This document shows positions 11,803-37,143 of a stretch of 37,143 nucleotides of DNA, one piece after another. Made by a program: the position numbers and the translations under genes. Below the pieces are notes generated by a model, which made no database searches, was not told where the DNA came from, and worked only from the letters and a program-made list of their open reading frames with translations. This DNA is from an uncultured Chloroflexota bacterium (GTDB taxonomy: Bacteria > Chloroflexota > Limnocylindria > P2-11E), in contig CAZMLV010000004.1 of assembly GCA_964567235.1 (NCBI GenBank), positions 1 to 37,143 of the forward strand, written 5' to 3'. How positions within the stretch are numbered: the stretch's first letter is position 1; each line of letters starts with the position of its first letter.

Positions 11803-11817
11803 CGGCGATCAGTCGAG

Positions 11818-11891
11818 TCGGGGTGGAGAGACTTGAACTCTCGACCTCTGAGTCCCGAACCCAGCGCGCTACCAAACTGCGCTACACCCCG
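11818..11891 (-). tRNA. tRNA-Pro (anticodon CGG)
   Basis: The reverse complement folds as a cloverleaf: CGGGGTG-TA-GCGC-AGTTTGGTA-GCGC-G-CTGGG-TTCGGGA-CTCAG-AGGTC-GAGAG-TTCAAGT-CTCTC-CACCCCG-A. It is 74 nt and CCA is not encoded. Confidence 0.92.
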
Positions 11892-11948: not shown

Positions 11949-12449
11949 ATGAGCGTCGACCAGATCGTCTTCACCGCGGCCGGCGCGGTCTGCATCGCCG
12001 GAGCCGTCACCGCGGTCGCCCATCGCGATGCGCGCACGGCAGGCGTCGCGCTCGCCGGCACGCTCCTCGCGCTCGCGGTCCTCTACGCCGGGCTCGCCGC
12101 GCCGGCGGTCGCTGGGGCGGTGATCGTCGTCGCGTTGTTCTCGACGCTGCCGTTCGTCGTGCACCTGACGGTGCCGGCATCGCGCAGCAACGCGACCGAT
12201 GGCCCGCGCGTGACCGGAGCCGCGCTCGTGCTTGGTGCGGCGGTGCTCGCGCTCCTGGCCGTCGCCATCGTCTTCGGCGAGGTCCCGGTGAACGTCTCGG
12301 TGCGGTCGGCTGACGCCTACGACCTCGCCGCGCTCGGGGATCTGCTCGCCGGCCGCGCCGCGGTCGCGGCCGGCGGATCACTCGTCGTCCTTCTCGCCGC
12401 GCTGGTCGCAGCGCGGGCCGCCCGCCGCGGCCGGTCGTTGTGGCGGTGA
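11949..12449 (+). CDS. nuoJ: NADH-quinone oxidoreductase subunit J-like
   Basis: 166 aa hydrophobic protein at the head of a K-L-M-N run. The N-terminal FTAAGAVCIAGAVTAV helix pattern is typical of NuoJ. Confidence 0.8.
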   Translation: MSVDQIVFTAAGAVCIAGAVTAVAHRDARTAGVALAGTLLALAVLYAGLAAPAVAGAVIVVALFSTLPFVVHLTVPASRSNATDGPRVTGAALVLGAAVLALLAVAIVFGEVPVNVSVRSADAYDLAALGDLLAGRAAVAAGGSLVVLLAALVAARAARRGRSLWR

Positions 12450-12706
12450 CCACGGCCGCATACCTGGCACTCGGTGCGGTGCTGTTCGCGGTCGGCGCGG
12501 TGGGCGCGGTGGTCCGAGCATCGGCGGTCGGACGCCTCGTCGGCGTCGAGCTCATGGTCGCCGCCGCGACGCTCACGTTCGCGGCCGCGGGCGTGGGATT
12601 CCGAGAGCTCGACGGTCAGATCGCCGCGATCCTCGCGATCGTCGTCACCGCGGCGCAGGCGATCGTCGGATACGCGCTCGTCTCCGGCATCCGGCGGCCC
12701 GAGTGA
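12440..12706 (+). CDS. nuoK: NADH-quinone oxidoreductase subunit K-like
   Basis: 88 aa with three TM helices and the conserved GVELMVAAA glutamate. Overlaps nuoJ by 10 nt. Confidence 0.85.
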   Translation: MAVTTAAYLALGAVLFAVGAVGAVVRASAVGRLVGVELMVAAATLTFAAAGVGFRELDGQIAAILAIVVTAAQAIVGYALVSGIRRPE

Positions 12707-14505
12707 CCCTCGCGATGGTGGTCGCGATCCCGCTCGCGAATGCGGTCGCGATCGCGGTGGTCGGCGGCCGGCTGGGCCGGCGAACGCTGGGCATCGTCAC
12801 GACGGTCGCGCTGGTCCTGTCGTTCGGCGCCGGCGCGTCGATGATCGCGACGCTGCGTGATCGCCCGACGGTCGACGCGTTCATCGCGACCTGGCTGCCG
12901 CTGCCCGGCGCCGACCTGGCACTCACCGTCGACAGCGCGATGCTCGCGGTCGCGCTCGCGCTCTCCGGCGTCTCGGCGCTCATCGCGCTCTACTCGATCG
13001 GCTATCTCGCGCGCGATCGCGGGCTGCAGCGGTACTTCTCCGCGCTCTCGCTCCTCGTCGCCGGGATGCTGCTGGTGACGCTCGGCGCGAACCTCCTGCT
13101 CGTCGTCGCGGGGTGGGAGCTCGCCGGTGCCGCGGCGTACCTGCTGGTGGGGCATCACCGTGAGCACACCGCCGCGGCGGCGGCCGCGTCGCAGCTGTTC
13201 GTGATCGACCGGATCGGGGACGCGGCGCTCGTCGCGGGCACGCTGCTACTGGTCACCGAGTTCCACACCGTGGACCTCGCTCAGCTCAGCGGAGTCGCGC
13301 TCGAACACGGGAGCACCATCGGCGGCGCGCCGGTCATCGCGAGCGTTCTCCTGCTGATCGGCGCGCTCGCAAAGTCCGCTCAGGCGCCGCTCCACGGGTG
13401 GCTTCCGGATGCGACCGAAGCGACCACGCCGGTGTCCGCGCTCCTGCAGACGGTGGCGGTGACTGGCGGGGTCGTGCTGCTCATGCGGCTGCGCTCCGTC
13501 CTCGTGCCTGACGTGCTGCAAGCCGCGGCGATCATCGGTGGGCTCACCGCGTTCGGGGCAGCGCTCGTCGCGGTCGGGGAGCGCGACGTGCGCCGGGTGC
13601 TGGCGTGGTCGACGATCTCGCAGGTCGGGCTCATGTTCGTTGCCGCGGGCCTGGGCGCGCTGTTCGCGGCGCGGTTCCAGCTCATCGCGCACGCCGTGGT
13701 CAAGGCCGTGCTCGTGCTCGGTGCCGGCTCGGTGCGCCGCGCGACCGGCGATGAATCGGACCTCGCGCGACGCGGTGGGATCGGCTGGCGGATGCGTTGG
13801 ACCGCCGGCGCCTTCGGCATCGGCACCCTGGCACTCATCGGGATCCCGCCCGCCGCGGGCTTCTTCGGCATCGCCGCGATCGTGAGCGCCGCGTTCTCGG
13901 AGGGCGACGCGCTCCTCACCGCGCTCGTGCTGCTGGCCGTCGCGGCGTCTGCGTTCGCGGGTGTGCGCCTCTTCGCGCTCATGTTCGCGGCGCCGCCGGC
14001 GGCGGTGCGGGCGACCGATGCGCCCCGCCGGCTGCAGGACGTGTCGCTGGTCCTGCTCGCGTTCGGTGCGCTCGCGTTCGGCGCCGCGGTGAGCGCCGGG
14101 CTCCTGCCGATCGGCAGCGGGCCCGCGGACGAGGCCCCGGTGTGGCTGCTCGGCGCGACGTTCGCCGTCGTGCTCGCGCCGTCGATCGCCGCGTGGCTCG
14201 GGTACCGCCATGGGCTTCCGGCCGCGGCGCGCATCGAGCGCGCCATGCGCTGGGCCCGCGGCGGCCTTGGCCTCGACGCGCTCTATGCCCGCGCCGTCGC
14301 GGATCCGTTCCGCGCCGTCGCCCGCGAGCTCGACGAGGGCGCCGAGCGCGCGAACGACCGGGCTGTCGGCGGCCTCGGCACCCTCGCACATCGCGCGTCG
14401 AACGTGATGGGCGGCGTGAGCCGCGCGAGCGCGCGGGCCGAACAGGCCTTCCTGCTCGCGGGGGCCGTCGTGCTGCTCGCGTTCTGGACGTGGAGCGCTC
14501 GGTGA
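12703..14505 (+). CDS. nuoL: NADH-quinone oxidoreductase subunit L-like (antiporter-like)
   Basis: 600 aa. Shows AGWELAGAAAYLLVGH, AKSAQAPLHGWLPDA, HAVVKAVLVLGAGS, and a C-terminal amphipathic segment plus a final TM helix. GTGA overlap with nuoK. Confidence 0.9.
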   Translation: MTLAMVVAIPLANAVAIAVVGGRLGRRTLGIVTTVALVLSFGAGASMIATLRDRPTVDAFIATWLPLPGADLALTVDSAMLAVALALSGVSALIALYSIGYLARDRGLQRYFSALSLLVAGMLLVTLGANLLLVVAGWELAGAAAYLLVGHHREHTAAAAAASQLFVIDRIGDAALVAGTLLLVTEFHTVDLAQLSGVALEHGSTIGGAPVIASVLLLIGALAKSAQAPLHGWLPDATEATTPVSALLQTVAVTGGVVLLMRLRSVLVPDVLQAAAIIGGLTAFGAALVAVGERDVRRVLAWSTISQVGLMFVAAGLGALFAARFQLIAHAVVKAVLVLGAGSVRRATGDESDLARRGGIGWRMRWTAGAFGIGTLALIGIPPAAGFFGIAAIVSAAFSEGDALLTALVLLAVAASAFAGVRLFALMFAAPPAAVRATDAPRRLQDVSLVLLAFGALAFGAAVSAGLLPIGSGPADEAPVWLLGATFAVVLAPSIAAWLGYRHGLPAAARIERAMRWARGGLGLDALYARAVADPFRAVARELDEGAERANDRAVGGLGTLAHRASNVMGGVSRASARAEQAFLLAGAVVLLAFWTWSAR

Positions 14506-15911
14506 TGGTCCAGGTCGTCGTGCTCATCCCGCTCGTCGTTGCGGTCGCGTGCGCGCTGCCCATCGGGAGCCTCGCGCGCGTCCTCGCGGTGCTGTCCGGC
14601 CTGCTGACCGCAGGTTGCGTGGCCGCCGCGGTGTGGCTGGGCGTCGGGGGCGGGCCGGTCGACCTCTACTACTGGGCGAGGCCGCTCGGCGCGCAGCTCG
14701 CAGTCGGTTGGGACGGCTGGTCCGCGGCGATGCTCCTGTTGAGCGGCGTCCTGTTCGCCGCAGGTGCGGCCGCGTCCGGCGGCATCGTCCGCCCGCGGGC
14801 GTACTTCGCCCTCTGGTCGCTCCTGCAAACGGCCGTCGCCGGCGTGTTCGTGTCGCGCGACCTCCTGCTCTTCTTCGCGGCGCACGAAGCGCTGCTCGTG
14901 CCGCTCGCGCTCCTCCTGTGGGGCTGGGGCGGCGCGGACCGCCGCGCCGCCACCCGGCGGCTCGCGGTCATGTGGCTGGCTGGCAGCGCCCTTCTGTTGA
15001 CCGGGATCCTGGCGCTCGGGGTGGGGGCGCACACGTTCTCGTTCGCGACGCTCGCCGGATACCGCCTCGCCGAGGCGAGTCAGGTCCTCCTCGCGCTGCT
15101 GTTCCTCTCGGCGTTCGCGATGCGTTTGCCGCTCTTCCCATTCCACGCGTGGGTCGCGCGAACCTACGTTGCTGCACCTGCTCCGGTCGCGATCGTGCTC
15201 GGGGGCGTGCTCTCGAAGACCGCCGTGTACGCGATCGCGCGTATCTGCCTGCCGCTCTTCCCGCGCGGGATGGCCGATCTGGAGCCGTACCTCCTCGCGC
15301 TGGCGACGGTCGGAGCGCTGTACGGCGCGATCCTCGCGACCCGGCAGCGGGACACCCGACGGGTCATCGTCTACGCGGGCCTCGCCGAGATCGATCTCAT
15401 CGCGGTCGGCGTGTTCCTCGCGACTCCCGGCGGTCTCGAGGGCGCATTGATCGCGAGCATCTCGCATGGTCTCGTCGTCGCGATCCTCGTTCTGCTCGGC
15501 GCCGCGCTCGCGCGGCGGATCGGCTCGTTCGGCTTCGGCCCAGGTGGCTTGGGGGCACGCGCTCCGGTCCTCATGGCGCTGTTCGTTCTCGCGATCCTCG
15601 GTCTGATCGGTGTTCCCGGCACGAGCGGCGCACCGGGCCAGCTGTCGATCCTCGCCGCCGCATTCGCGGTCTCACCGGGCATCGGGCTGATCGCGTCGCT
15701 GGTGCCGGTCGTCATCGCGGTGAGTGGCGCCGGCGTGCTGCGCGCGGTGTTCTTCGGACCTCCGGCGGTGGGCGGTCTCGATCTCGGCTGGCGCGAGCGC
15801 GGGCTCGTCGTCGCGCTGATCGCGCTCGCCGTCGTGATCGGCGTCGTGCCGCGCTCCGTCGGCGATCTTGCGGGCCGAACGGGACCAGCGCTCTCCGAGC
15901 TGCGGCAGTGA
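14502..15911 (+). CDS. nuoM: NADH-quinone oxidoreductase subunit M-like (antiporter-like)
   Basis: This is the C-terminal 469 codons of track ORF 13797..15911. GTG 14502 forms a GTGA overlap with the nuoL stop. Shows FFAAHEALLVPL and PLFPFHAWV. The upstream part of the ORF is an Arg-rich out-of-frame artefact over nuoL. Confidence 0.85.
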   Translation: MMVQVVVLIPLVVAVACALPIGSLARVLAVLSGLLTAGCVAAAVWLGVGGGPVDLYYWARPLGAQLAVGWDGWSAAMLLLSGVLFAAGAAASGGIVRPRAYFALWSLLQTAVAGVFVSRDLLLFFAAHEALLVPLALLLWGWGGADRRAATRRLAVMWLAGSALLLTGILALGVGAHTFSFATLAGYRLAEASQVLLALLFLSAFAMRLPLFPFHAWVARTYVAAPAPVAIVLGGVLSKTAVYAIARICLPLFPRGMADLEPYLLALATVGALYGAILATRQRDTRRVIVYAGLAEIDLIAVGVFLATPGGLEGALIASISHGLVVAILVLLGAALARRIGSFGFGPGGLGARAPVLMALFVLAILGLIGVPGTSGAPGQLSILAAAFAVSPGIGLIASLVPVVIAVSGAGVLRAVFFGPPAVGGLDLGWRERGLVVALIALAVVIGVVPRSVGDLAGRTGPALSELRQ

Positions 15912-17236
15912 GCGCGGCCGAGCTCGGCGCGCTCGTTCCGGCGCTCGCCCTCGCCGGGAGCGCGGCGCTCGCCACGCTCCTCGCGATCCCGCGGCGGACC
16001 GGCCCGCGGGCGCTCGCCTGGCTCGGCGCGCTCGCAGCTGCGGCGGTGGCCGGCGTGGCGCTCGCGAACGGCACCGGAGCCGCATCGCCGACCGTCGCCC
16101 GCGATGGCGCGAGTGCGTTCTTCGTCGTCCTCGTCGCGATCGTCACAGCGGTGTCGTGCGTGCTCGCTGCGGCGGATCCGCGACGGATCGTCCGCTCGAA
16201 GGACGAGACCGCGCTCGCGCTGATCGCGGCGTGCGGCGCGGTCGTCGTCGTGTCGGCCGTCGACCTGCTGGTCTTGTTCGTCGGGCTCGCGCTGCTGACG
16301 ATCCCGCTCTACGTGCTCACGGGCCGCACCGCGTTGGCGGGGGATGAGGGCGCGGTGCGGCATTTCCTCCTCGGGGCGACGAGCTCGGCCGTCGCGCTTT
16401 ACGGGATGGCGCTGCTGTACGCGGCGACGGGCGAGACCGGGTACGCCGGTCTCGGCCGCGCGACCCACAACCCTCTCTACCTCGCCGGGCTGGCGCTCAC
16501 GCTCGCGGGCCTCGTGTCGCATGTCGCGACCGCATCGGCCCGGCGATGGTCGATCGTGATCAACGTTGCGGTCAGTGGCGCGCTGGTGCGGCTCGTCGCG
16601 GCCACCGCGAGCGGCGAGATCGGGCTCGACTGGCAGGTCTCATTCGCGACGCTCGCGGGGGTCGCGCTCGTCGTGCCGGGCGTCGCCGCCGTCGCGGAGC
16701 GCCGCGTGCGCCGCATCGTCGGGTACGCGACGATCACACAGCTCGGCTTCGTCGCCGTGGCCGTCGCAAGCGCCGCCCTGCCCGCGGCCGCGTTCGCGCT
16801 CGTTGCGTACTGCGCGACGGCACTCGGCCTCTTCGCCGTGATCGCGATCCTGCCGCAACGCGAACCGGTGCTCGAGGATCTTGCCGGGCTCGCGCGGCGG
16901 CGGCCGGTCGTCGTGCTCGCACTGGCCCTCCTCGCGTTCGGGATCGCCGGCGTTCCACCGACCGTCGGTTTCCTCGCGAAGGTCGACGTCCTCGAGGCGG
17001 CGGTCCGCGCGCAGCTCCTCTGGCTCGTGGTTCTCGGCGCGCTCGCGAGCGTGGGGACCGCCGTGGCGTGCGCCAGGCTGGTCCTCGCATGCTTTGCCGC
17101 GCCACCGCTCGACGCGGTCGCGCCGTCGCGCATGCGCGCGGGCACCGTCGTCGCGCTGGTCCTCGCGATCGCCGTCCTGGCCGCCGGCCTCGCGCCCGGG
17201 CCGCTCCTCGACGCGGTGCAGGCGGTCCACTTCTAG
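15908..17236 (+). CDS. nuoN: NADH-quinone oxidoreductase subunit N-like (antiporter-like, divergent)
   Basis: This is the C-terminal 442 codons of track ORF 14549..17236. GTG 15908 forms a GTGA overlap with the nuoM stop. Shows LLVLFVGLALLTIPLY, GYATITQLGF and GVPPTVGFLAKV. Confidence 0.8.
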   Translation: MSAAELGALVPALALAGSAALATLLAIPRRTGPRALAWLGALAAAAVAGVALANGTGAASPTVARDGASAFFVVLVAIVTAVSCVLAAADPRRIVRSKDETALALIAACGAVVVVSAVDLLVLFVGLALLTIPLYVLTGRTALAGDEGAVRHFLLGATSSAVALYGMALLYAATGETGYAGLGRATHNPLYLAGLALTLAGLVSHVATASARRWSIVINVAVSGALVRLVAATASGEIGLDWQVSFATLAGVALVVPGVAAVAERRVRRIVGYATITQLGFVAVAVASAALPAAAFALVAYCATALGLFAVIAILPQREPVLEDLAGLARRRPVVVLALALLAFGIAGVPPTVGFLAKVDVLEAAVRAQLLWLVVLGALASVGTAVACARLVLACFAAPPLDAVAPSRMRAGTVVALVLAIAVLAAGLAPGPLLDAVQAVHF

Positions 17237-23564: not shown

Positions 23565-23903
23565 GGAGTTGGTCTGCCGCCCGTGCTAATGGTGATCTTC
23601 GGCGCGGCTGCGTCGGCTGATTCAATCCTGAACTTTGCCGCCGAGCCCAACAGGCCAGGGCGATCGCCACTGTCGCGCGACCTGTTCGACCAAAGGTTCG
23701 ACCCATCATCAACGAGCATCCTGAGTGCGGCACGCTAATCGACGCTGGTCGACGACTGGTCCGAGATGTCAGCCGTGCAGAAACGGCGGGTGCTCGACCG
23801 ATCTTCTCGGCCGTCGAGCTCGACCGGGGGAGCCTCGTCTCGGCCACGCCGAAGCCGGGGTGACTCGAGTACATCGAGACCGCGCTCAGTGGTTTACCAC
23901 GGG

Positions 23904-23976
23904 AGGGGCTGGTGGGAATCGAACCCACGACGCCCGCCTTAGGACGGCGGCGCTCTGTCCGCTGAGCTACAGCCCC
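23904..23976 (-). tRNA. tRNA-Arg (anticodon CCT)
   Basis: The reverse complement folds as GGGGCTG-TA-GCTC-AGCGGACA-GAGC-G-CCGCC-GTCCTAA-GGCGG-GCGTC-GTGGG-TTCGATT-CCCAC-CAGCCCC-T. It is 73 nt and CCA is not encoded. The discriminator reads U, which is unusual for tRNA-Arg. Confidence 0.85.
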
Positions 23977-29543: not shown

Positions 29544-31361
29544 ATGGCGGGCTTCTTCCAGGAGGACGAGATCCTCGGCAAGGCCTACGACGGCCGGCTG
29601 ATGCGGCGGCTGCTCTCGTACCTGCGGCCGTACAAAGGCCTTGTCGCGATCGCCTTCGTCCTGCTCGTCTTTCTCTCCTTCGCGGACATCGCGCCGCCGA
29701 TCATCACGAAGTTCCTCATCGACTCGGCCATCGCGCCGGCGGTGAACGGCGACATTCCCGCGGCCGAGGGCCTCCGGCTTCTGGTGCCGCTCGGCGCGGC
29801 GTACCTCGGCGTGCTGCTCGCGTCAGCCGCGCTTCGGTACGGGCAGAACATCCTCACCACGTACGTGGGCCAGCGCGCGATGTACGACCTCCGCGTCCAG
29901 CTGTTCGGCCACCTCCAGTCGCTGTCGCTCTCGTTCTTCGATCGCAATCCGGTGGGCCGGCTCATGACGCGGATCACGAACGACATTGACGCCCTCACGG
30001 ACATGGTGACCCAGGGCGTCGTGTCGATCTTCGGTGACTTCCTCATGCTCATCGGCATCGCCGTCGTCCTGCTCTTCCTCGACTGGCGGCTCGCGCTCCT
30101 CACGTACGCGACACTGCCGATCATCGTCGCGCTCACGTTCTACTTCCGGAAGACGATGCGCGAGTCGTTCCGGAGCATCCGGATCCGGCTCGCCCGCATC
30201 AACGCGTACCTGAACGAGAACATCAGCGGAATGTCGATCGTCCAGCTGTTCACGCGGGAGCCGCGGGCCTACCGGCAGTTCGACGAGCTGAACACCGACC
30301 TACTGAACGCGAACCAGGGCGCGATCAAGGCGATGAGCCTGTTCTTCCCGGCCGTGACGTTCACCCGCGCGGGCGCGGCGTCGGCGATCTTCATCGCCGG
30401 CGGTTACTGGGCCCTCGGCGGTCAGCTGACCATCGGGACGCTGCTCGCGTTCTGGCAGCTCCTCGACCAGTTCTTCCGCCCGATCCAGGACCTGTCCGAG
30501 AAATACAACATCCTGCAGTCGGCGATGGCGTCGTCGGAGCGGGTCTTCCGGCTCCTGGACACGGAGGCGACGATCGTGGACGCGCCGCACCCGGTCGCGC
30601 TCCCGAGCGTGCGGGGCGAGATCACGATGGACAACGTCTCGTTCGCGTACAACGAGGGCGATTGGGTCCTGCGCGACGTCGACTTCAAGATCTCCGCGGG
30701 CGAGAGCGTCGCCATCGTGGGCGCCACCGGGGCGGGGAAGACGTCGATCATCAGTCTCATCTCGCGCTTCTACGACGTGCAGAAGGGCCGCATCCTCCTT
30801 GACGGCGTGGACCTGCGCGACCTCGCCCAGCGGGACGTGCGCCGCCACGTCGGCGTCGTGCTCCAGGACCCGTTCATCTTCGCGGGCACCATCGCGTCCA
30901 ACATCCGGCTGAACGAGTCGGGGATCACCGACGAGCAGGTGCGATCGGCCGCGCGCTTCGTGAACGCGGACAAGTTCATCGAGCGGCTGCCCGACGCGTA
31001 CGAGACCGTCGTCACCGAGCGCGGCTCGACGCTCTCGGTCGGGCAGAAACAGCTGCTCGCGTTCGCGCGGGCGATCGCGTTCAACCCGGAGATCATGCTC
31101 GTGCTCGACGAGGCGACCTCGTCGGTCGACACCGAGACCGAGCACCTCATCCAGGACGCGCTGAAGAAGCTCATGGTCGGGCGGACCTCGATCATCATCG
31201 CCCACCGCCTCTCGACGATCCAGAACGTCGACCGGATCATCGTGCTGCACAAGGGCCGCGTCGCGGAGATGGGCTCGCACAAGGAGCTCCTCGGCCAGCA
31301 GGGCGTCTACCATCGGCTCTACGAGCTCCAATACCGCGCTCACGAGGGTGCTTCGACGTAG
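29544..31361 (+). CDS. ABC exporter half-transporter (TMD-NBD), consensus-site partner
   Basis: 605 aa. Walker A GATGAGKTS, altered signature LSVGQKQL, Walker B LVLDEA, H-loop IAHR. The ATG directly follows the upstream TAG. Confidence 0.92.
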   Translation: MAGFFQEDEILGKAYDGRLMRRLLSYLRPYKGLVAIAFVLLVFLSFADIAPPIITKFLIDSAIAPAVNGDIPAAEGLRLLVPLGAAYLGVLLASAALRYGQNILTTYVGQRAMYDLRVQLFGHLQSLSLSFFDRNPVGRLMTRITNDIDALTDMVTQGVVSIFGDFLMLIGIAVVLLFLDWRLALLTYATLPIIVALTFYFRKTMRESFRSIRIRLARINAYLNENISGMSIVQLFTREPRAYRQFDELNTDLLNANQGAIKAMSLFFPAVTFTRAGAASAIFIAGGYWALGGQLTIGTLLAFWQLLDQFFRPIQDLSEKYNILQSAMASSERVFRLLDTEATIVDAPHPVALPSVRGEITMDNVSFAYNEGDWVLRDVDFKISAGESVAIVGATGAGKTSIISLISRFYDVQKGRILLDGVDLRDLAQRDVRRHVGVVLQDPFIFAGTIASNIRLNESGITDEQVRSAARFVNADKFIERLPDAYETVVTERGSTLSVGQKQLLAFARAIAFNPEIMLVLDEATSSVDTETEHLIQDALKKLMVGRTSIIIAHRLSTIQNVDRIIVLHKGRVAEMGSHKELLGQQGVYHRLYELQYRAHEGAST

Positions 31362-32928
31362 CGCGGTCCCACACCAGCTGGACCGCCGCGCGTTCCTCGC
31401 CGCGTCCGCCCGGATCGCCGCTCTGGCTGCGCTCGCGCCGCTGGCGGCGTGCGCGCAGACCTCGGCGCCGCTCAAGCTCGAGAAGGATCCATTCACCCTC
31501 GGCGTCGCGTCCGGCGATCCGCTGCCCGGCGCGGTGATCCTCTGGACCCGCCTCGCGATGGACCCGCTCCACGGCGGCGGGATGCCGAGCGCGCCGATCG
31601 ACGTCGCGTGGACGATCGCCCGCGACGAAGCGATGAAGGACGTCGCGGCCTCCGGCTCGATGAGCGCGATCCCCGAGCTCGGACACTCGGTGCACGTCGA
31701 CGCGAACGGCCTCGAGCCGGATCGCGCGTACTGGTACCGCTTCCGCGCGGGAGGGTTCGACAGCCCGATCGGCCGTACGCGGACGGCGCCTGCGGCGAGC
31801 GCCAGCCCGGAAGTGCTGAAGTTCGCCTTCGCGTCGTGCCAGAACTACACCCAGGGCTACTACACCGCGCACGCCGCGCTCGCGCAGGAGGATCTCCACG
31901 CCGTCGTGTTCCTCGGCGACTACATCTACGAGGGCGACGCCCGCGGCGACCGGGTCCGCGATTACGCCAAGCGCGGGTGGGCGTTCACCCTGGCCGACTA
32001 CCGGGACCGCTACGCGCAGTACAAGACGGACCTGAACCTGCAGGCGTCGCACGCGGCGTTCCCGTGGATCGCGACGTGGGACGACCATGAGGTCGAGAAC
32101 AACTACGCCGGCGGGATCGACGTGGCTGACCCGAAGAACAAGCAGGCCGTCTTCGAGCGGACGAACGCGTACCAGGCGTACTACGAGCACCTGCCGATCC
32201 GGGTCGCGCGGCCCTCCGGGCCGGCGCTCAAGCTCTATCGGGCGCTGTCGTTCGGGGACCTCGCGACGTTCCACGTCCTGGACACCCGTCAGTACCGCTC
32301 GCCCGAGGTGGCGCTCTGCGCGGACAGCGCGGAGACGCCGTCGGGCTACTGCGCGCCGAACCTCGACCCGAAGCGCACGATGCTGGGCAAGGAGCAGCGC
32401 GACTGGCTGATCAGCGGTCTCGGTGCGTCGCACGCGGACTGGAACTTCGTCGCGCAGTCGGTGCGGTTCGCGGAGCAGGACTCGAGCCCCGACCCGGCGA
32501 CGCACCACTTCGACGGCGTCGACAACTGGATGGGCTACGTGGCAGACCGCCAGACGCTCATCGAGCAGTTCGCCCGGACGAAGAACGCGGTCGTGCTGTC
32601 CGGCGACAGCCACGTCAACTTCGTCTACGACATCAAGGCGAACTTCACCGATCCGGCGTCCCCGAGGGTCGCGACCGAGCTGCTCGGCACGTCGATCAGC
32701 TCGGACGGTGATCCGTTCATCCCAGCGACACAGTTCGACGGCTCGGCGAAGAATCCGCAGCTGCACTTCTTCGATAACCATCGCGGGTACGTGCGCTGCA
32801 CGGTCGAGCGCGGCCGGCTGACCGCCGACTTCCGGGCCGTGTCGACGGTGACCGGGCCGACGGCCACGGTGAGCACGGTCGCGACCTTTGTCGTCGATGA
32901 CGGCAAGCCCGGCGCCCATCGTGCCTGA
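31348..32928 (+). CDS. phoD: alkaline phosphatase D family phosphodiesterase/phosphatase, Tat-exported lipoprotein
   Basis: 526 aa. Twin-arginine signal LDRRAFLAASARIAALAALAPLAAC with lipobox LAAC. PhoD hallmarks FTLGVASGDP, FASCQNY, FLGDYIYE, WDDHEVENNY. Confidence 0.92.
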   Translation: MLRRSAVPHQLDRRAFLAASARIAALAALAPLAACAQTSAPLKLEKDPFTLGVASGDPLPGAVILWTRLAMDPLHGGGMPSAPIDVAWTIARDEAMKDVAASGSMSAIPELGHSVHVDANGLEPDRAYWYRFRAGGFDSPIGRTRTAPAASASPEVLKFAFASCQNYTQGYYTAHAALAQEDLHAVVFLGDYIYEGDARGDRVRDYAKRGWAFTLADYRDRYAQYKTDLNLQASHAAFPWIATWDDHEVENNYAGGIDVADPKNKQAVFERTNAYQAYYEHLPIRVARPSGPALKLYRALSFGDLATFHVLDTRQYRSPEVALCADSAETPSGYCAPNLDPKRTMLGKEQRDWLISGLGASHADWNFVAQSVRFAEQDSSPDPATHHFDGVDNWMGYVADRQTLIEQFARTKNAVVLSGDSHVNFVYDIKANFTDPASPRVATELLGTSISSDGDPFIPATQFDGSAKNPQLHFFDNHRGYVRCTVERGRLTADFRAVSTVTGPTATVSTVATFVVDDGKPGAHRA

Positions 32929-33715
32929 GCTCGCGGCGTTCACCGCGACCGACGCGCTCGAGATCGCGGTCGGCGCTGCCCGCGCGGCCGCGGAGATCCT
33001 CGTCGATCGGTTCCGCGGTCCAGCCGTCGGCGTGCGGAGCAAGTCCACGGCGACGGATCTGGTCTCCGAGGCGGACGAGCGCGCCGAGCAGGCGGTGGTC
33101 GCCTACCTCCGCGCGCGCCGACCGCACGACGGGTTGGTGGCCGAGGAGGGCTCGTCGAGCGAGAGCCTGACCGGCTTCCGCTGGCTGGTCGATCCGCTCG
33201 ACGGCACGATCAACTACCTCTACGGCGTCCCGCACTGGTGCGTGAGCGTCGCGTGCGCGGACGCCGGCGGCGCGATCGCCGGCGCGGTGTTCGATCCGAC
33301 ACGCGGCGAGCTCTTCACCGCGGCCCGCGCGGCGGGCGCGCAGCTTGGCGGGCGCCCGGTCGCCACCAGCTCGGTCGCCGATCCGGCGGCTGCCCTGGTC
33401 GCGACCGGATTCAGCTACGACGCCGTCGAACGCGCGGCGCAGGCGGCGATCGTCGCGAGGATGGCCGGGTCGGTCCGCGACATCCGCCGCGCGGGATCGG
33501 CCGCGCTCGATCTCGCGTGGGTCGCCGCGGGCCGCCTCGATGCGTACTTCGAGGTCTCGCGATCCGCGTGGGACACCGCCGCCGGCGCCCTGCTGGTCCG
33601 CGAAGCAGGCGGCGCTGTGACCTGGACCGAGCACACCGAGATCGTCGCGTCGGGCCGGCCGTTGCACGCGCGGCTCGTCGCGCTCGTGCGCGCAAGTCAC
33701 CACACCGACCGCTAG
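32921..33715 (+). CDS. inositol monophosphatase family protein
   Basis: Shows [23 protein letters not shown] and [18 protein letters not shown] 32921 overlaps the phoD stop by 8 nt. The track ORF start at 32888 is the alternative. Confidence 0.9.
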
Positions 33716-33728
33716 ACTGAGGTCAAAG

Positions 33729-34313
33729 ATGGCGATCGACCAGAAGACCCCGACCGGCGTCCAGCCCATCGATTTCGAAGAGGACGTCATCCAGCGCCGG
33801 CCGCTGACCACCCAGACGGGGATGGGCGGCCACGAGCCGCGGATGATCTCCGGCGTCACCGCCAGCGACGACAACATCGTGTTCACGACCGTGAACATGC
33901 TCGTGAACTGGGCGCGTTCGCGGAGCCCCTGGCCGCTCGGCTACGGCCTCGCGTGTTGCGCGATCGAGATGATGGCCAGCGCCGCGTCGCACCACGACCT
34001 CGCGCGCTTCGGCGCCGAGGTGTTCCGGTCGAGCCCCCGCCAGGCCGACGTGATGATCGTCGCGGGCACGGTCACCCACAAGATGGCCCCGCGCCTGCGG
34101 CGGCTGTACGAGCAGATGCCCGAGCCGAAGTGGGTCATCGCGATGGGCAACTGCGCGAGCTCCGGCGGCGAGTTCTGGGACAGCTACGCGACGCTTCAGG
34201 GCGTCGACACCGTGGTCCCGGTCGACGTGTACGTGCCGGGCTGCCCACCGCGCCCCGAGGCGCTGACCGAGGGCGTGCTCCGGCTGCGCGAGAAGATCTT
34301 CAAAGGTGGCTGA
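33729..34313 (+). CDS. nuoB: NADH-quinone oxidoreductase subunit B-like (N2 cluster subunit)
   Basis: 194 aa. All four N2 ligand positions are present: [29 protein letters not shown]. It has an N-terminal extension of about 30 aa relative to typical NuoB. Confidence 0.93.
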
Positions 34314-34316
34314 GCG

Positions 34317-35504
34317 CTGACCACCATCGATCGCGAACGTCAGGCCATCGAGGAAGCCGCGCACGTCCGCCTTCCCGTCATCGAGAGTGACGAGGGCCTC
34401 GAGACCGAGGAGCTCATCCTCAACCTCGGGCCGCAGCACCCGTCGACCCACGGCGTGCTCCGGCTCGTGCTGAAGCTCCAGGGCGAGAAGGTCGTCGAGT
34501 GCATCCCGGTCATGGGCTACCTGCATCGGGGCATCGAGAAGATCTTCGAGTGGCGGACCTTCCACCAGGGCATCCGCTACGCGGATCAGGCCGACTACGT
34601 CTCCAACATGCTCCAGGAGCACTGCTACGCCGGGGCGATGGAGGCCATCGGCGGGATCGACGTCCCACGGCGGGCCGAGTACATCCGCGTCATCGTCGAT
34701 GAGCTGTCGCGCTGCGCGTCGCACCTCGTATGGCTCGGCACGTACGGCCTCGACGTGGGCGCGACGACGCCGATGCTGTACTGCTTCCGCGATCGTGAGG
34801 AGATCCTCGACCTGTTCGAGGAGCTCTGCGGGTCACGCATGAACTTCAACTACTTCCGGCCGGGTGGCGTGCTCTACGACTTCCCGCCCGGCATGCTGGC
34901 GAAGCTCGAGCGGTTCCTCGACCGGTTCGCCGGGCACATCGAGCGGGACTACGTCGAGCTCTTCGAGACGAACGAGATCTTCCTCGAGCGGACCATCGGC
35001 GTCGGCGGCATCCCCGGCGTCGTGGCGACGCAGTACGGGCTCACCGGCCCGATCCTTCGCGCGTCCGGGGTCGATTGGGATCTCCGGAAGGACCGCCCGT
35101 ATTCCATCTATCCGGAGCTCACCAGCTTCAAGTCGGTGACCTCGGTGGAGGGCGACGCGTACGCGCGGTACAAGGTCCGGCTCGGCGAGATGCGCCGCTC
35201 GATCGAGATCGTCCGCGAGTGCATCGCGAACATCCCCGGTGGCGCCGTGCGCGCGCGGCTCGGGCACGTGTGGAAGTGTCCGAAGGGCGAGGCCTATTAC
35301 ACCGTCGAGGGTGCGAAGGGCGAGGTCGGCATCTACATGATCAGCTCGGGCGGTTCGGCGACGAACCCCTTCCGGGCGAAGATGCGCGGCCCGTCGTTCA
35401 ACAACCTGCAGATCCTCCCGTGGCTCCTTCAGGGCCGGCTCGTGGCGGACGTCGTGGCGATCCTCGGCTCGATCGACATCGTGCTCGGCGACGTGGACCG
35501 GTAA
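34317..35504 (+). CDS. nuoD: NADH-quinone oxidoreductase subunit D-like
   Basis: Shows NLGPQHPSTHGVLRL, YLHRGIEKI and the C-terminal GSIDIVLGDVDR (NuoD type, no NiFe Cys motifs). Track ORF start 34455 (GTG) would delete the conserved GPQHP motif. No ATG/GTG/TTG lies between the nuoB TGA (34311-34313) and that motif. CTG 34317, 7 nt after SD AAGGTGG (34303-34309), is my best guess. Confidence 0.85.
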   Translation: MTTIDRERQAIEEAAHVRLPVIESDEGLETEELILNLGPQHPSTHGVLRLVLKLQGEKVVECIPVMGYLHRGIEKIFEWRTFHQGIRYADQADYVSNMLQEHCYAGAMEAIGGIDVPRRAEYIRVIVDELSRCASHLVWLGTYGLDVGATTPMLYCFRDREEILDLFEELCGSRMNFNYFRPGGVLYDFPPGMLAKLERFLDRFAGHIERDYVELFETNEIFLERTIGVGGIPGVVATQYGLTGPILRASGVDWDLRKDRPYSIYPELTSFKSVTSVEGDAYARYKVRLGEMRRSIEIVRECIANIPGGAVRARLGHVWKCPKGEAYYTVEGAKGEVGIYMISSGGSATNPFRAKMRGPSFNNLQILPWLLQGRLVADVVAILGSIDIVLGDVDR

Positions 35505-36223
35505 TGCTCGGGATCCTCAACGGCATGAAGCGAACGCTCAGCCACGTGTTCATGCGCCAGAGCGTCACGCGCAAGTACCCGTACGAGAAGCGCGAGCTGC
35601 CGGAGCGCAGCCGGGGGCTCATCGCGCTGCTGCTCGAGCCCGAGACGAGCATCTTCAAGTGCGAGTCGTGCCTCATGTGCGAGAAGGCCTGCCCGCCGCG
35701 AGCCATCTCGATCTCGTACACGTTCCGCAACGCCTTCCGCAAGCGGCCGCCCATCGCGCCCCGCGCGTCGTACTACCGCATCCGCATGGTCCAGACCGCG
35801 CCGTACGGCGACCGCCGTCCGCTGTCGAATGCGGTGCTCACGGTGCCGGCCGAGGCGGAGCGCGGGCTCGACCTCGCCATCGTCGACCGCATCCTTCGCG
35901 AGGCGCCCGCGGGCGCCGACCGGATGACCCGGGTGCTCTACGCGACGGACGCGGCGTACGGCTACCTGCCCTGGAGCGCGGCCGAGCGGATCGCCGCGTC
36001 GTTCGGCGTGCAGATGACCCACCTCTACACGGCCGCCTCGCTGCTCTCGAACTTCCGCGGCGCGCCCGACGGCCAGGGCACCGCGATCCCGCGCGGTGGC
36101 CGCCGTTACACCGGCAACGTCGCGATCGCCGGCCTCTGGCCGGACCAGAGCCCCGCGCCAGCGCACGATCACCTGCATGAGCACGAGGTGACGCACCCGA
36201 TGGAGCCCGCGTTTGCCGACTAG
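35504..36223 (+). CDS. nuoI: chimeric NuoI-like (single 4Fe-4S motif) / NuoE-N-domain-like protein with His-rich tail
   Basis: 239 aa. The ATG overlaps the nuoD TAA (TAATG). The N-terminus (KRTLSHVFMRQSVTRKYPYEKRELPERSRG, KCESCLMCEKACPPRAISI) is NuoI-like, but only 4 Cys are present in total. The middle region (VDRILREAP...AAYGYLPWSAAERIAASFGVQMTHLYTAASLLSNF) resembles the NuoE N-terminal helical domain without 2Fe-2S cysteines. The tail is PAHDHLHEHEVTHP. Confidence 0.75.
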   Translation: MLGILNGMKRTLSHVFMRQSVTRKYPYEKRELPERSRGLIALLLEPETSIFKCESCLMCEKACPPRAISISYTFRNAFRKRPPIAPRASYYRIRMVQTAPYGDRRPLSNAVLTVPAEAERGLDLAIVDRILREAPAGADRMTRVLYATDAAYGYLPWSAAERIAASFGVQMTHLYTAASLLSNFRGAPDGQGTAIPRGGRRYTGNVAIAGLWPDQSPAPAHDHLHEHEVTHPMEPAFAD

Positions 36224-37143
36224 CGCCGCGTACCGGATCCTCGACACCGACGTCAACGCCGCCCACGAGCGCGAGCGCGCCCGTTCAATGGGGCCCGAGC
36301 AGCTCATCGCGCTCATCGAGGCGAGCGGCCTGCGCGGTCGCGGCGGGGCCGGGTTCCCGCTCGCGCGCAAGCTCGCGACTGCGCGCGCAGCGGCAGCCGG
36401 TGGTAGTGCGTACGTCGTCGCGAACGCCTACGACGCGGATCCGGGCAGCCCGCTCGCGCGCACGATCCTCCTCACGAAGCCCGAGCTCGTGATCCAAGGC
36501 CTCGCCATCGCCGCCGCTGCCGTCGGCGCCACGAGCGGCTACCTCTACCTGCGTCCGGATGCCGAGAGCGCGAAGCGCGCGGCGGAACGCGCGCTCGAGG
36601 CCGCTCGGCCCGCCCTCGGCGATCTCGAGATCGAGGTCGCCCTTGGTCCCGGCACCTTCATGGGCGGCGAGGAGTCCGCGCTGCTCGCGGTGCTCGAATC
36701 GCGCCGGGCGATGGCCCGGCAGCGGCCGCCGTATCCGGCGCGCCAGGGACTGCTCCTCCGTCCCACGGTCGTCTCGAGCGCGGAGACGCTCGCGGCGCTG
36801 CCGCTCATCGTGCGCGACGGCGCCGAGGCGTTCCGGCGCGTCGGGACCGAGTCATCGCCCGGAACGAAGCTCGTGTCGGTGACCGGCGCGGTCGCATCGC
36901 CCGGCGTCTACGAGGTCGCGTTCGGCGAGACCCTGGGCGAGATCCTCGAGCGCGCCGGCGGCGCGGCGGGGAAGACGTTCAAGGGGCTCCATGTGGGCGG
37001 CCCGACCGGCGGCATCCTCAACTCGACGCGGACCGGCGTGGCCCTCGACTACGCCGCGCTGAAGGCCGCGGGCACGCACCTCGGCTCCGCGCAGATCCGG
37101 GTCATCGGCCCCGGCGTCTGCGTCGTGAACGAGGCCGCCAAGC
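36213..37143 (+). CDS. nuoF: NuoF-like NADH/FMN-binding flavoprotein subunit (3' end outside window)
   Basis: Frame open to the window end. Shows SGLRGRGGAGFP, ANAYDADPGS, GPGTFMGGEESALL, PPYPARQGLLLRPTVVSSAETLA and SPGTKLVSVTG. Probable TTG start at 36213 (11-nt overlap with the upstream gene); ATG 36288 is the alternative. Confidence 0.85.
   Translation, partial: MPTSAAYRILDTDVNAAHERERARSMGPEQLIALIEASGLRGRGGAGFPLARKLATARAAAAGGSAYVVANAYDADPGSPLARTILLTKPELVIQGLAIAAAAVGATSGYLYLRPDAESAKRAAERALEAARPALGDLEIEVALGPGTFMGGEESALLAVLESRRAMARQRPPYPARQGLLLRPTVVSSAETLAALPLIVRDGAEAFRRVGTESSPGTKLVSVTGAVASPGVYEVAFGETLGEILERAGGAAGKTFKGLHVGGPTGGILNSTRTGVALDYAALKAAGTHLGSAQIRVIGPGVCVVNEAAK

Follow-up and report, generated by a model that had tools for sequence, protein, structure and literature searches.

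The origin of the NADH-oxidizing module of respiratory complex I is an old question, and classical complex I is NADH-specific. Among the described systems closest to the locus reported here, the soluble StnABC enzyme contains a subunit, StnC, that is a NuoG plus GltD fusion oxidizing NADPH, and the NuoE-like [2Fe-2S] cluster of this enzyme is required for bifurcation (PMC10482914). In complex I-like Mbx operons, a GltD-related flavoprotein replaces NuoI, and an 11-subunit complex I (NUO11) lacks the N-module (PMC4758237). Here we analyze a 37,143-nucleotide (nt) stretch of DNA (contig CAZMLV010000004.1; hereafter, the window), with 70% G+C, from an uncultured bacterium of the Chloroflexota class Limnocylindria, focusing on positions 33729 to 37143 at its end. 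Together with an upstream inositol-monophosphatase-family (IMPase) gene, this segment accounts for all but the last fifth of a conserved operon, (IMPase)-nuoB-nuoD-[nuoI N-half::nuoE′]-nuoF′-[nuoG-like/gltD-like::nuoI C-half], in which nuoI is split and its two halves are fused to genes on either side of nuoF′. We consider it probable that the products of this operon form the hydrophilic arm of an unusual version of respiratory complex I, with the exception of NuoC, which is encoded at a second locus.

The two halves of NuoI reside on separate polypeptides

Five genes are close-packed on one strand at 32888 to 37143, as identified from a list of open reading frames and from profile searches:

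32888 to 33715, + strand: IMPase gene (Pfam Inositol_P, E = 1e-58), ending 13 nt 5′ of nuoB
33729 to 34313, + strand: nuoB, 194 amino acids (aa); NCBIfam NuoB, 243 bits
34317 to 35504, + strand: nuoD, 395 aa; NuoD model NF004739, 431 bits against a cut-off of 360
35504 to 36223, + strand: chimera of the NuoI N-half and a NuoE-like part, 239 aa
35504 to 35743, + strand: chimera part 1, NuoI N-terminal half (residues 1 to 80)
35744 to 35839, + strand: chimera part 2, connecting segment (residues 81 to 112)
35840 to 36079, + strand: chimera part 3, NuoE-like helical bundle (residues ~113 to 192)
36080 to 36223, + strand: chimera part 4, class-specific tail (residues 193 to 239)
36213 to 37143, + strand: nuoF-like gene (nuoF′), Complex1_51K plus SLBB; truncated at codon 310 of 415 by the end of the window

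The first-pass annotation had described nuoB, nuoD, a NuoI/NuoE chimera, and a nuoF-like gene lying back to back behind an IMPase gene. The profile matches agree with this description, and the proposed overlaps of nuoD with the chimera (1 nt) and of the chimera with nuoF′ (11 nt) are correct. No nuoA, nuoC, nuoE, nuoG, or nuoH was found within 33729 to 37143, and a NuoG-like gene starts just beyond the end of the window.

This NuoG-like gene is present in L001 (GCA_035479035.1), one of nine public contigs that encode an identical chimera protein, which is 99.69% identical to the last 2267 nt of the window. Downstream of nuoF′, L001 encodes an 804-aa StnC-like protein followed by unrelated genes. 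Residues 30 to 733 of this protein align with 9bov_A (E = 1.5e-166), StnC of Sporomusa ovata (8oh5_C, E = 5e-161), and NfnA (9n5u_A, E = 2e-144). The protein contains a NuoG-type [2Fe-2S] domain, two GltD-type [4Fe-4S] sites, flavin adenine dinucleotide (FAD) and NADPH Rossmann motifs, a CxxCxCx5C site, and three ferredoxin-type CxxCxxCxxxC motifs (here termed a, b, and c), and it matches the Pfam families Fer2_4, Fer4_20, Pyr_redox_2, and Fer4_Nqo3. The NuoG model TIGR01973 matches its N-terminal Fe-S domains only (115 bits against a cut-off of 470), and no molybdopterin-domain family is present among the matches listed. From a window that ends one gene early, the first-pass annotation had proposed a pared-down module with no NuoG wire and with the second NuoI cysteine motif missing. 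The first proposal was wrong because the next gene supplies a NuoG/HydA-like Fe-S chain together with a GltD-type NADPH/FAD domain; the second motif is found at the C-terminus of the same protein.

The last ~95 residues of the 804-aa protein (CIYCGDCVEVCP...PNFE) constitute the missing C-terminal half of NuoI. Its third ferredoxin motif reads C727-IYCGDCVEVC-P and is followed by HGALGETPNFELSTY, the signature of the second half of NuoI. Taken alone, residues 709 to 804 match positions 69 to 112 of the NuoI model (E = 4.8e-13, 48.8 bits), and residues 1 to 88 of the chimera match positions 2 to 71 (44.4 bits). When joined in silico, the two pieces give a single match to positions 2 to 112 (88.7 bits, E = 2e-25) that is colinear with E. 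coli NuoI. When the joined sequence is aligned with 61 canonical NuoI proteins, only P26, P64, and the eight cysteines are invariant. Neither polypeptide alone has the two CxxCxxCxxxCP motifs of NuoI (N6a/N6b), and all eight cysteines are present only in the pair. We conclude that nuoI is split in the arrangement I_N::E′ - F′ - G*/GltD::I_C.

The chimera joins a NuoI half to a NuoE-like bundle

Residues 1 to 80 of the chimera match positions 2 to 71 of the 121-position TIGR01971 NuoI model (E about 1e-11 to 9e-11), and positions 12 to 87 of a local hidden Markov model (HMM) of canonical NuoI match the same half with 85 bits. The only four cysteines of the protein (C53, C56, C59, and C63), which form one CxxCxxCxxxCP motif after the N-terminal helix, are invariant in the family alignment. 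The ratio of nonsynonymous to synonymous substitution rates (dN/dS) is 0.07 to 0.19 for the whole chimera, 0.01 to 0.20 for the NuoI half, 0 to 0.08 for segment 81 to 112, and 0.04 to 0.31 for the tail. The connecting segment (...RPPIAPRASYYRIRMVQTAPYGDRRPL...) is therefore the most constrained part of the chimera, and it has no family match. A YYRIRM motif in this segment resembles the strand that precedes motif II of NuoI.

Residues 124 to 193 weakly match 2Fe-2S_thioredx/HoxE, covering positions 2 to 65 of the 145 in the Pfam 2Fe-2S_thioredx profile. In an AlphaFold2 (AF2) model of the chimera, the predicted local distance difference test score reaches ~90 only over the NuoE-like bundle, and the connecting segment is of low confidence. 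Foldseek searches with the confident part returned top matches that were all of the NuoE type (FdsG, NfnC, StnA, HydC, NDUFV2, and NuoE), with root mean square deviations of 1.6 to 2.0 over 62 to 67 columns. The NuoE-like part is thus the helical bundle alone, without the [2Fe-2S] thioredoxin-like domain, and no cysteine occurs outside the NuoI motif. In place of the NuoE cluster domain stands a His-rich tail (...RGGRRYTGN...WP..SP.P.HDxLHExEVxH..EPA) that is conserved among the aligned Limnocylindria sequences; residues 193 to 239 gave no family match. The earlier description of a chimera with one Cys motif and a cluster-less NuoE-like domain is borne out.

NuoF′ is related to HydB, NfnB, and StnB

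The full NuoF′, taken from L001, is 415 aa long and adds an NADH_4Fe-4S domain with the N3 cysteines to the fragment in the window; Complex1_51K, SLBB, and NADH_4Fe-4S are its only Pfam matches. The glycine loop (GRGGAGF), the GEE motif, and the N3 cysteines are kept. The unusual reading ANAYDADPGS reported earlier was confirmed. Replacement of NADExE by NA[Y/F]xAD is common to all aligned family members, and NN is changed to SS relative to NuoF. The pocket is conserved but differs from that of NuoF.

The NuoF model TIGR01959 scores the 310-residue window fragment at 229 bits against a cut-off of 559. The best solved relatives of NuoF′ are HydB (298 bits), NfnB (282 bits), and StnB (278 bits); scores against genuine NuoF were 236 bits (mycobacterial), 215 bits (Aquifex), and 190 bits (Thermus). 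NuoF′ covers the NuoF core only, equivalent to HydB residues 178 to 567, and lacks the extra N- and C-terminal cluster domains of HydB/StnB. A relationship to diaphorases had been suggested correctly, although HoxF/FdsB had been named where the closest proteins are of the Bfu type (HydB/NfnB/StnB). A Hox-type reading was considered and rejected.

NuoB and NuoD are of the complex I type, and nuoD apparently starts at CTG

NuoB carries a 45-residue N-terminal extension and keeps all four N2 cysteines, which in an alignment correspond to E. coli C63/C64/C129/C158. NuoD retains the quinone-site His (GPQHPSTHG, beta1-beta2 loop) and Tyr (QADYVS), and its C-terminus reads SIDIVLGDVDR. No NiFe cysteines (the RxCGxC / DPCxxC ligands of group 4 [NiFe] hydrogenase and Mbx) are present in the NuoD sequence, and a hydrogenase reading was rejected on this basis. 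On both subunits, the N2 cysteines of NuoB and the Nuo type of NuoD, the first-pass annotation was accurate.

The 3-nt gap that it placed between nuoB and nuoD requires nuoD to begin at CTG 34317, because the first in-frame ATG/GTG/TTG lies at 34455 and a start there would delete the conserved N-terminus. Translation apparently starts at this CTG, which in positions 34300 to 34330 comes after the nuoB stop and the AAAGGTGG sequence. Across orthologous loci, the homologous start codon is CTG in 19, ATA in at least 8, and ATG/GTG/TTG in the others, and it is always preceded by a Shine-Dalgarno-like AAGGnGG within the end of nuoB. This pattern suggests conserved noncanonical initiation of nuoD. 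Gene callers shorten this NuoD.

The cassette is conserved across Limnocylindria and extends to distant relatives

The chimera family comprises 475 clusters at 90% identity, the best 120 of which are 75 to 95% identical and labeled Chloroflexota or Candidatus Limnocylindria. Scanning a single genome from each species gave 204 matching stretches; a relative is encoded by 132 of these, and 80 loci were retrieved. The order IMPase-nuoB-nuoD-chimera-nuoF′-StnC-like gene is constant in these 80 loci wherever the contig is long enough. Identity of the Limnocylindria loci to the window lineage is 75 to 97% for NuoB, 67 to 98% for NuoD, 67 to 95% for the chimera, 52 to 96% for NuoF′, and 75 to 98% for the StnC-like protein, which is the most conserved subunit of the cassette. 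The NuoI C-half ends all four StnC-like proteins that were examined individually (the window lineage, L087, L092, and L096), as well as those of 43/43 loci from which both genes could be extracted.

Distant members recovered by an exhaustive profile search have the NuoI half fused to a complete NuoE domain with CxxxxC...CxxxC. Their operons read nuoA-B-C-D-H-chimera-F-... (L088), A-B-C-D-H-chimera-F-StnC-like (L092 and L096), and ...C-D-H-chimera-F-StnC-like-J-K (L087). No separate nuoI was found in the operon contexts of the distant chimera relatives examined. With the insertion removed, the gene order of these relatives is that of an 11-subunit operon, A-B-C-D-H-I-J-K-L-M-N. One 607-aa cluster member labeled Thermoleophilia (P0166) is a triple fusion of the NuoI N-half, a NuoE-like part, and NuoF, the last of which is canonical looking (NADEGDPGSF). 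This protein suggests that Actinomycetota have the split-NuoI architecture as well, with a flavin site closer to the standard form.

Several further features were observed among the relatives. A 228-aa protein (P0183) joins the N-part of the chimera to an apparent NuoH C-terminus (...RVRIDQLMGFAWKWLLP...) and is probably an assembly or frameshift artifact in a lineage in which nuoH precedes the chimera. Six loci (L052, L067 to L069, L071, and L083) encode a ~190- to 220-aa protein with a hydrophobic stretch between nuoF′ and the StnC-like gene; in L086, a ~245-aa protein is inserted. The gene order is intact in all of these loci. Typical cassettes (67 to 95% identity) were found in metagenome-assembled genomes labeled Saccharimonadales, Acidiferrales, Udaeobacter, Bathyarchaeia, and Dormiibacterota (L007, L035, L036, L039, and L086), labels that likely result from misbinning. 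Public annotations of these proteins include "ferredoxin," "hypothetical protein," "subunit E," and "glutamate synthase small subunit."

A second locus encodes the complementary subunits

No nuoA, nuoC, or nuoH was found within 10 kb of any Limnocylindria cassette, and a tblastn search with human ND1 and ND3 against 1 Mb of cassette loci gave no match. A NuoH search seeded from the groundwater relative L092 returned no Limnocylindria-named match among the best 120, a result that proved misleading. When the search was seeded with P0317, hundreds of NuoH proteins of 375 to 390 aa were detected, several of them labeled Candidatus Limnocylindria or Limnocylindrales; one of the clusters contains 343 members. 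Loss of nuoH, which the ND1/ND3 result had suggested, was rejected on this evidence. In every NuoH context examined, the genes read nuoA-C-H-J-K-L-M-N and lie beside obg-nadD-rsfS, without nuoB, nuoD, or nuoI. This locus is the exact complement of the cassette. The nuoA, nuoC, and nuoH genes that the first-pass annotation had noted as missing from the cassette are thus carried at a separate locus on Limnocylindria-labeled contigs.

All of the canonical residues checked are kept at the complementary locus: Y59 in NuoJ; E36 and E72 in NuoK; E144, K229, H254, H334, H338, K399, and D400 in NuoL; E144, K234, K265, and E407 in NuoM; and E133, K217, K247, and K395 in NuoN. The window contains a different J-N set upstream of the cassette:

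11949 to 17236, + strand: nuoJ′-K′-L′-M′-N′ block, ~24 to 38% identical to the Limnocylindria A-C-H-J-N locus

Changes in this block comprise E72Q in NuoK; H254Q, H334Q, K399I, and D400A in NuoL; K234R and E407Q in NuoM; and E133A, K217H, and K247N in NuoN, and NuoJ′ falls under the Pfam cut-off. NuoJ of L087, which has an ancestral-type operon, is 39% identical to the canonical locus versus 26% to the window block. A metagenome scan with NuoL′ found 14 close loci only, all with the stand-alone J′-N′ synteny and none with nuoA, nuoC, or nuoH upstream. The block had been proposed as the partner of the cassette; it is a divergent extra paralog and probably not the main membrane arm. A tRNA-Pro(CGG) gene at 11817 to 11891 (− strand) lies directly upstream of nuoJ′.

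Genes upstream of the cassette

The IMPase gene is probably the first gene of the operon. Most Limnocylindria loci that extend far enough have it 5′ of nuoB, with 2 to 2.5 kb between the two genes in a few of them. In L032 and others, this gap encodes a ~235-aa hydrophobic protein followed by a ~595-aa coiled-coil protein, which look like a putative NfeD/flotillin pair. The top NCBIfam match of the IMPase protein is inositol-1-monophosphatase, with a weak match to NADP phosphatase/NAD kinase. The IMPase family includes NADP phosphatases, and the kinship suggested by the weak match would make the protein an intriguing companion of an NADPH-binding complex. Directly upstream of the IMPase gene is a gene for a PhoD phosphatase (31348 to 32928), and a tRNA-Arg(CCT) gene is at 23902 to 23976 (− strand).

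Proposed origin and function

The inserted genes have the E-F-G order of stnABC, which points to the insertion of an stn/nfn-like operon into the inter-motif loop of nuoI. From the observed gene content, homologies, NuoI split, conservation, and two complementary loci, we infer the assembly, donor specificity, and proton pumping of the complex as follows. A three-gene module of the stnABC/nfnCBA type (NuoE-like, NuoF-like, and NuoG plus GltD) would have entered the nuoI loop of an 11-subunit-type operon, leaving one NuoI half fused in frame to the first gene of the module and the other half to the last. The two halves would reassemble into the usual two-[4Fe-4S] NuoI fold beside NuoB/NuoD, and the reassembled NuoI would tie the input module to the quinone module on both sides. 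Electrons would enter from NADPH at the GltD-like FAD, and possibly from NADH at the flavin mononucleotide (FMN) of NuoF′, pass over the NuoG/HydA-like clusters to N6a/N6b and then N2, and reduce quinone at the NuoD/NuoH interface. Protons would be pumped by the membrane arm encoded at the second locus, nuoA-C-H-J-K-L-M-N. Split, insertion, assembly, and electron path together form the best single explanation of the data, and we regard it as a probable one.

Judged from the sequences, the function is most likely that of a proton-pumping NAD(P)H:quinone oxidoreductase. Cofactor-binding motifs for a continuous chain are all encoded: the FAD/NADPH site, two GltD clusters, a [2Fe-2S] cluster, the CxxCxCx5C site, two ferredoxin clusters, N3 and the flavin loop in NuoF′, the eight NuoI cysteines, N2, and the quinone-site residues. 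Only N1a is missing from the canonical complex I set, and the N1a of NuoE is an off-pathway cluster. Bifurcation is unlikely because NuoF′ lacks the ferredoxin-site domains of HydB and because the Limnocylindria chimera has lost the NuoE [2Fe-2S]. Conservation is strongest in the StnC-like protein, which fits a role for NADPH as an important donor. We tentatively extend this to a more specific proposal, which we consider somewhat less likely than not: that Limnocylindria and related Chloroflexota, and possibly Thermoleophilia, have a natural proton-pumping NADPH:quinone complex I whose input module was gained independently of NuoEFG through an Nfn/Stn-type insertion into nuoI, with NADPH at the GltD-type FAD as the main donor and the altered NuoF′ site either admitting electrons from NADH as a second entry or exchanging them between NADH and NADPH.

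Several observations weigh against the proposed complex or parts of it. The local NuoI HMM also aligns motifs b and c of the 804-aa protein as one ferredoxin domain (residues 693 to 777, 66.6 bits), which makes the exact pairing of the four ferredoxin motifs proposed here provisional. Motifs a and b are spaced by 32 residues, as in the aligned StnC/NfnA, which leaves motif c and the chimera motif as two unpaired halves; with one motif on the chimera and three on the 804-aa protein, an intermolecular ferredoxin domain is needed under either pairing. The NuoI half of the chimera is of low confidence in the AF2 model, and cluster N1a of NuoE is absent from the Limnocylindria chimera. In NuoF′ of every family member aligned, positions that contact FMN/NADH are changed (E. 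coli D92 is Y or F, E95 is D, and Y178 is F), making NADH oxidation at this site uncertain. Finally, co-occurrence of the cassette and the A-C-H-J-K-L-M-N locus is shown at the class level only.

A first alternative concerns direction. The same complex could run mainly in reverse, with proton motive force and quinol driving NADPH formation, or could couple NADH/NADPH exchange to the quinone pool in a three-way manner. Having two flavin sites that bind nucleotides on a single Fe-S chain would suit such a role, and StnABC has NADPH:NAD+ oxidoreductase activity (PMC10482914). Nothing speaks directly against it, and sequence does not reveal direction; we think it rather improbable.

A soluble enzyme, in which NuoB/NuoD serve as a redox module of a cytoplasmic Stn/Nfn-like transhydrogenase or another enzyme with no membrane arm and no quinone, is unlikely. 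It would account for cassettes without nuoH, nuoA, or nuoC within 10 kb in Limnocylindria, and NuoF′ and the NuoG-like protein are closest to soluble Bfu enzymes. However, conservation extends to the NuoI N-terminal helix and to the His and Tyr of the quinone site, the domains associated with Bfu bifurcation (the cluster domains at both ends of HydB and the NuoE [2Fe-2S]) are missing, and relatives carry the same genes between nuoH and nuoJ. Moreover, the Limnocylindria A-C-H-J-N locus lacks nuoB, nuoD, and nuoI and so needs exactly the genes of the cassette.

The pared-down module of the first-pass annotation, in which a flavoprotein docks through the NuoE-like domain onto a one-cluster NuoI with NuoB/NuoD, without a NuoG wire and in partnership with the window J-N block, is contradicted by the downstream sequence and very improbable. 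Seen alone, the window does show one Cys motif, no NuoG, and a J-N block 16 kb upstream. Every locus that is long enough, however, has the next gene with its NuoG/HydA-like Fe-S chain and second NuoI motif, and the J′-N′ block, in addition to its low identity to the A-C-H-J-N locus, has lost many pumping residues. A decaying relic or assembly artifact, as might be supposed from the shortened NuoE domain, the odd NuoF motif, the lack of a canonical nuoD start codon, and the scattered genes, can be dismissed almost entirely given an identical chimera on nine independent contigs, the 475 clusters, the low dN/dS of the chimera, the 75 to 98% identity of the StnC-like protein across the class, and the conservation of the CTG/ATA start position itself.

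Returning to the proton-pumping complex proposed above, we note that the split nuoI, fused in frame at both junctions, still marks the insertion site. The acquired genes are nearer to soluble Bfu-type enzymes than to NuoEFG, which points to a second, independent acquisition of an input module that can be dated and dissected. If the proposal is true, the NADPH pool would feed respiration directly through an NADPH/FAD domain on the shared Fe-S chain, and nucleotide specificity in complex I would become testable in a natural system. With NuoI on two polypeptides, N1a lost, and NuoG lacking its large C-terminal domain, the system offers a test of which parts of the peripheral arm are indispensable. 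Limnocylindria are abundant in soils and lakes, and the cassette is the only NuoB/NuoD set found for them; under current annotation names such as "ferredoxin," "hypothetical protein," and "glutamate synthase small subunit," pathway-based annotation may score their complex I as incomplete.

Comparison with known systems

The locus represents a real, conserved, and widespread variant of complex I that, within the searchable literature, is apparently new. No description of a split NuoI or of a Stn/Nfn-type module in complex I was found in that literature; many subscription papers lie outside this scope, and a prior description is possible. To this extent, the first-pass annotation was right that the architecture is noncanonical and undescribed.

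Canonical complex I of E. coli and Thermus thermophilus shares with this system the N2 NuoB, the quinone-site NuoD, eight NuoI cysteines in NuoI order, a NuoF core with glycine loop and N3, and NuoG-like [2Fe-2S] and [4Fe-4S] domains, and a canonical A, C, H, J-N set is present in the same class. In contrast to the canonical enzyme, one piece of NuoI here is joined to NuoE′ and the other to the NuoG-like protein, nuoI itself harbors the input genes, which canonically lie between nuoD and nuoH, and the NuoG-like protein has an embedded GltD FAD/NADPH domain and no molybdopterin-like domain. In addition, N1a is missing in Limnocylindria, NAYDAD replaces NADExE in NuoF′, and the genes are distributed over two loci.

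The StnABC/NfnABC enzymes (Nfn-Bfu; PDB 8OH5, 9BOV, and 9N5U; PMC10482914 and PMC12018979) have the same NuoE-like/NuoF-like/NuoG plus GltD gene order, and the 804-aa protein aligns with StnC/NfnA over ~700 residues. Here, however, half of NuoI replaces the C-terminal molybdopterin-like domain of StnC. HydB/StnB reduce ferredoxin at N- and C-terminal cluster domains that NuoF′ does not have, and the [2Fe-2S] on which bifurcation by Stn depends is missing from the E-like part. Instead of being soluble, the module would be joined by fusion to a quinone-reducing complex I.

With its insertion removed, the gene order of the distant relatives resembles that of the 11-subunit complex I without an N-module (NUO11; Degli Esposti 2015, PMC4758237), from which the present system differs by a flavin input module covalently joined to both NuoI halves. 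As in the Mbx-like operons, a GltD-type NAD(P)H flavoprotein has been recruited to a complex I-like membrane enzyme. In the hydrogenase-derived Mbx, GltD replaces NuoI, whereas the present system retains NuoI in split form, has a quinone-type NuoD, and carries GltD within a NuoG-like protein beside a NuoF-like subunit.

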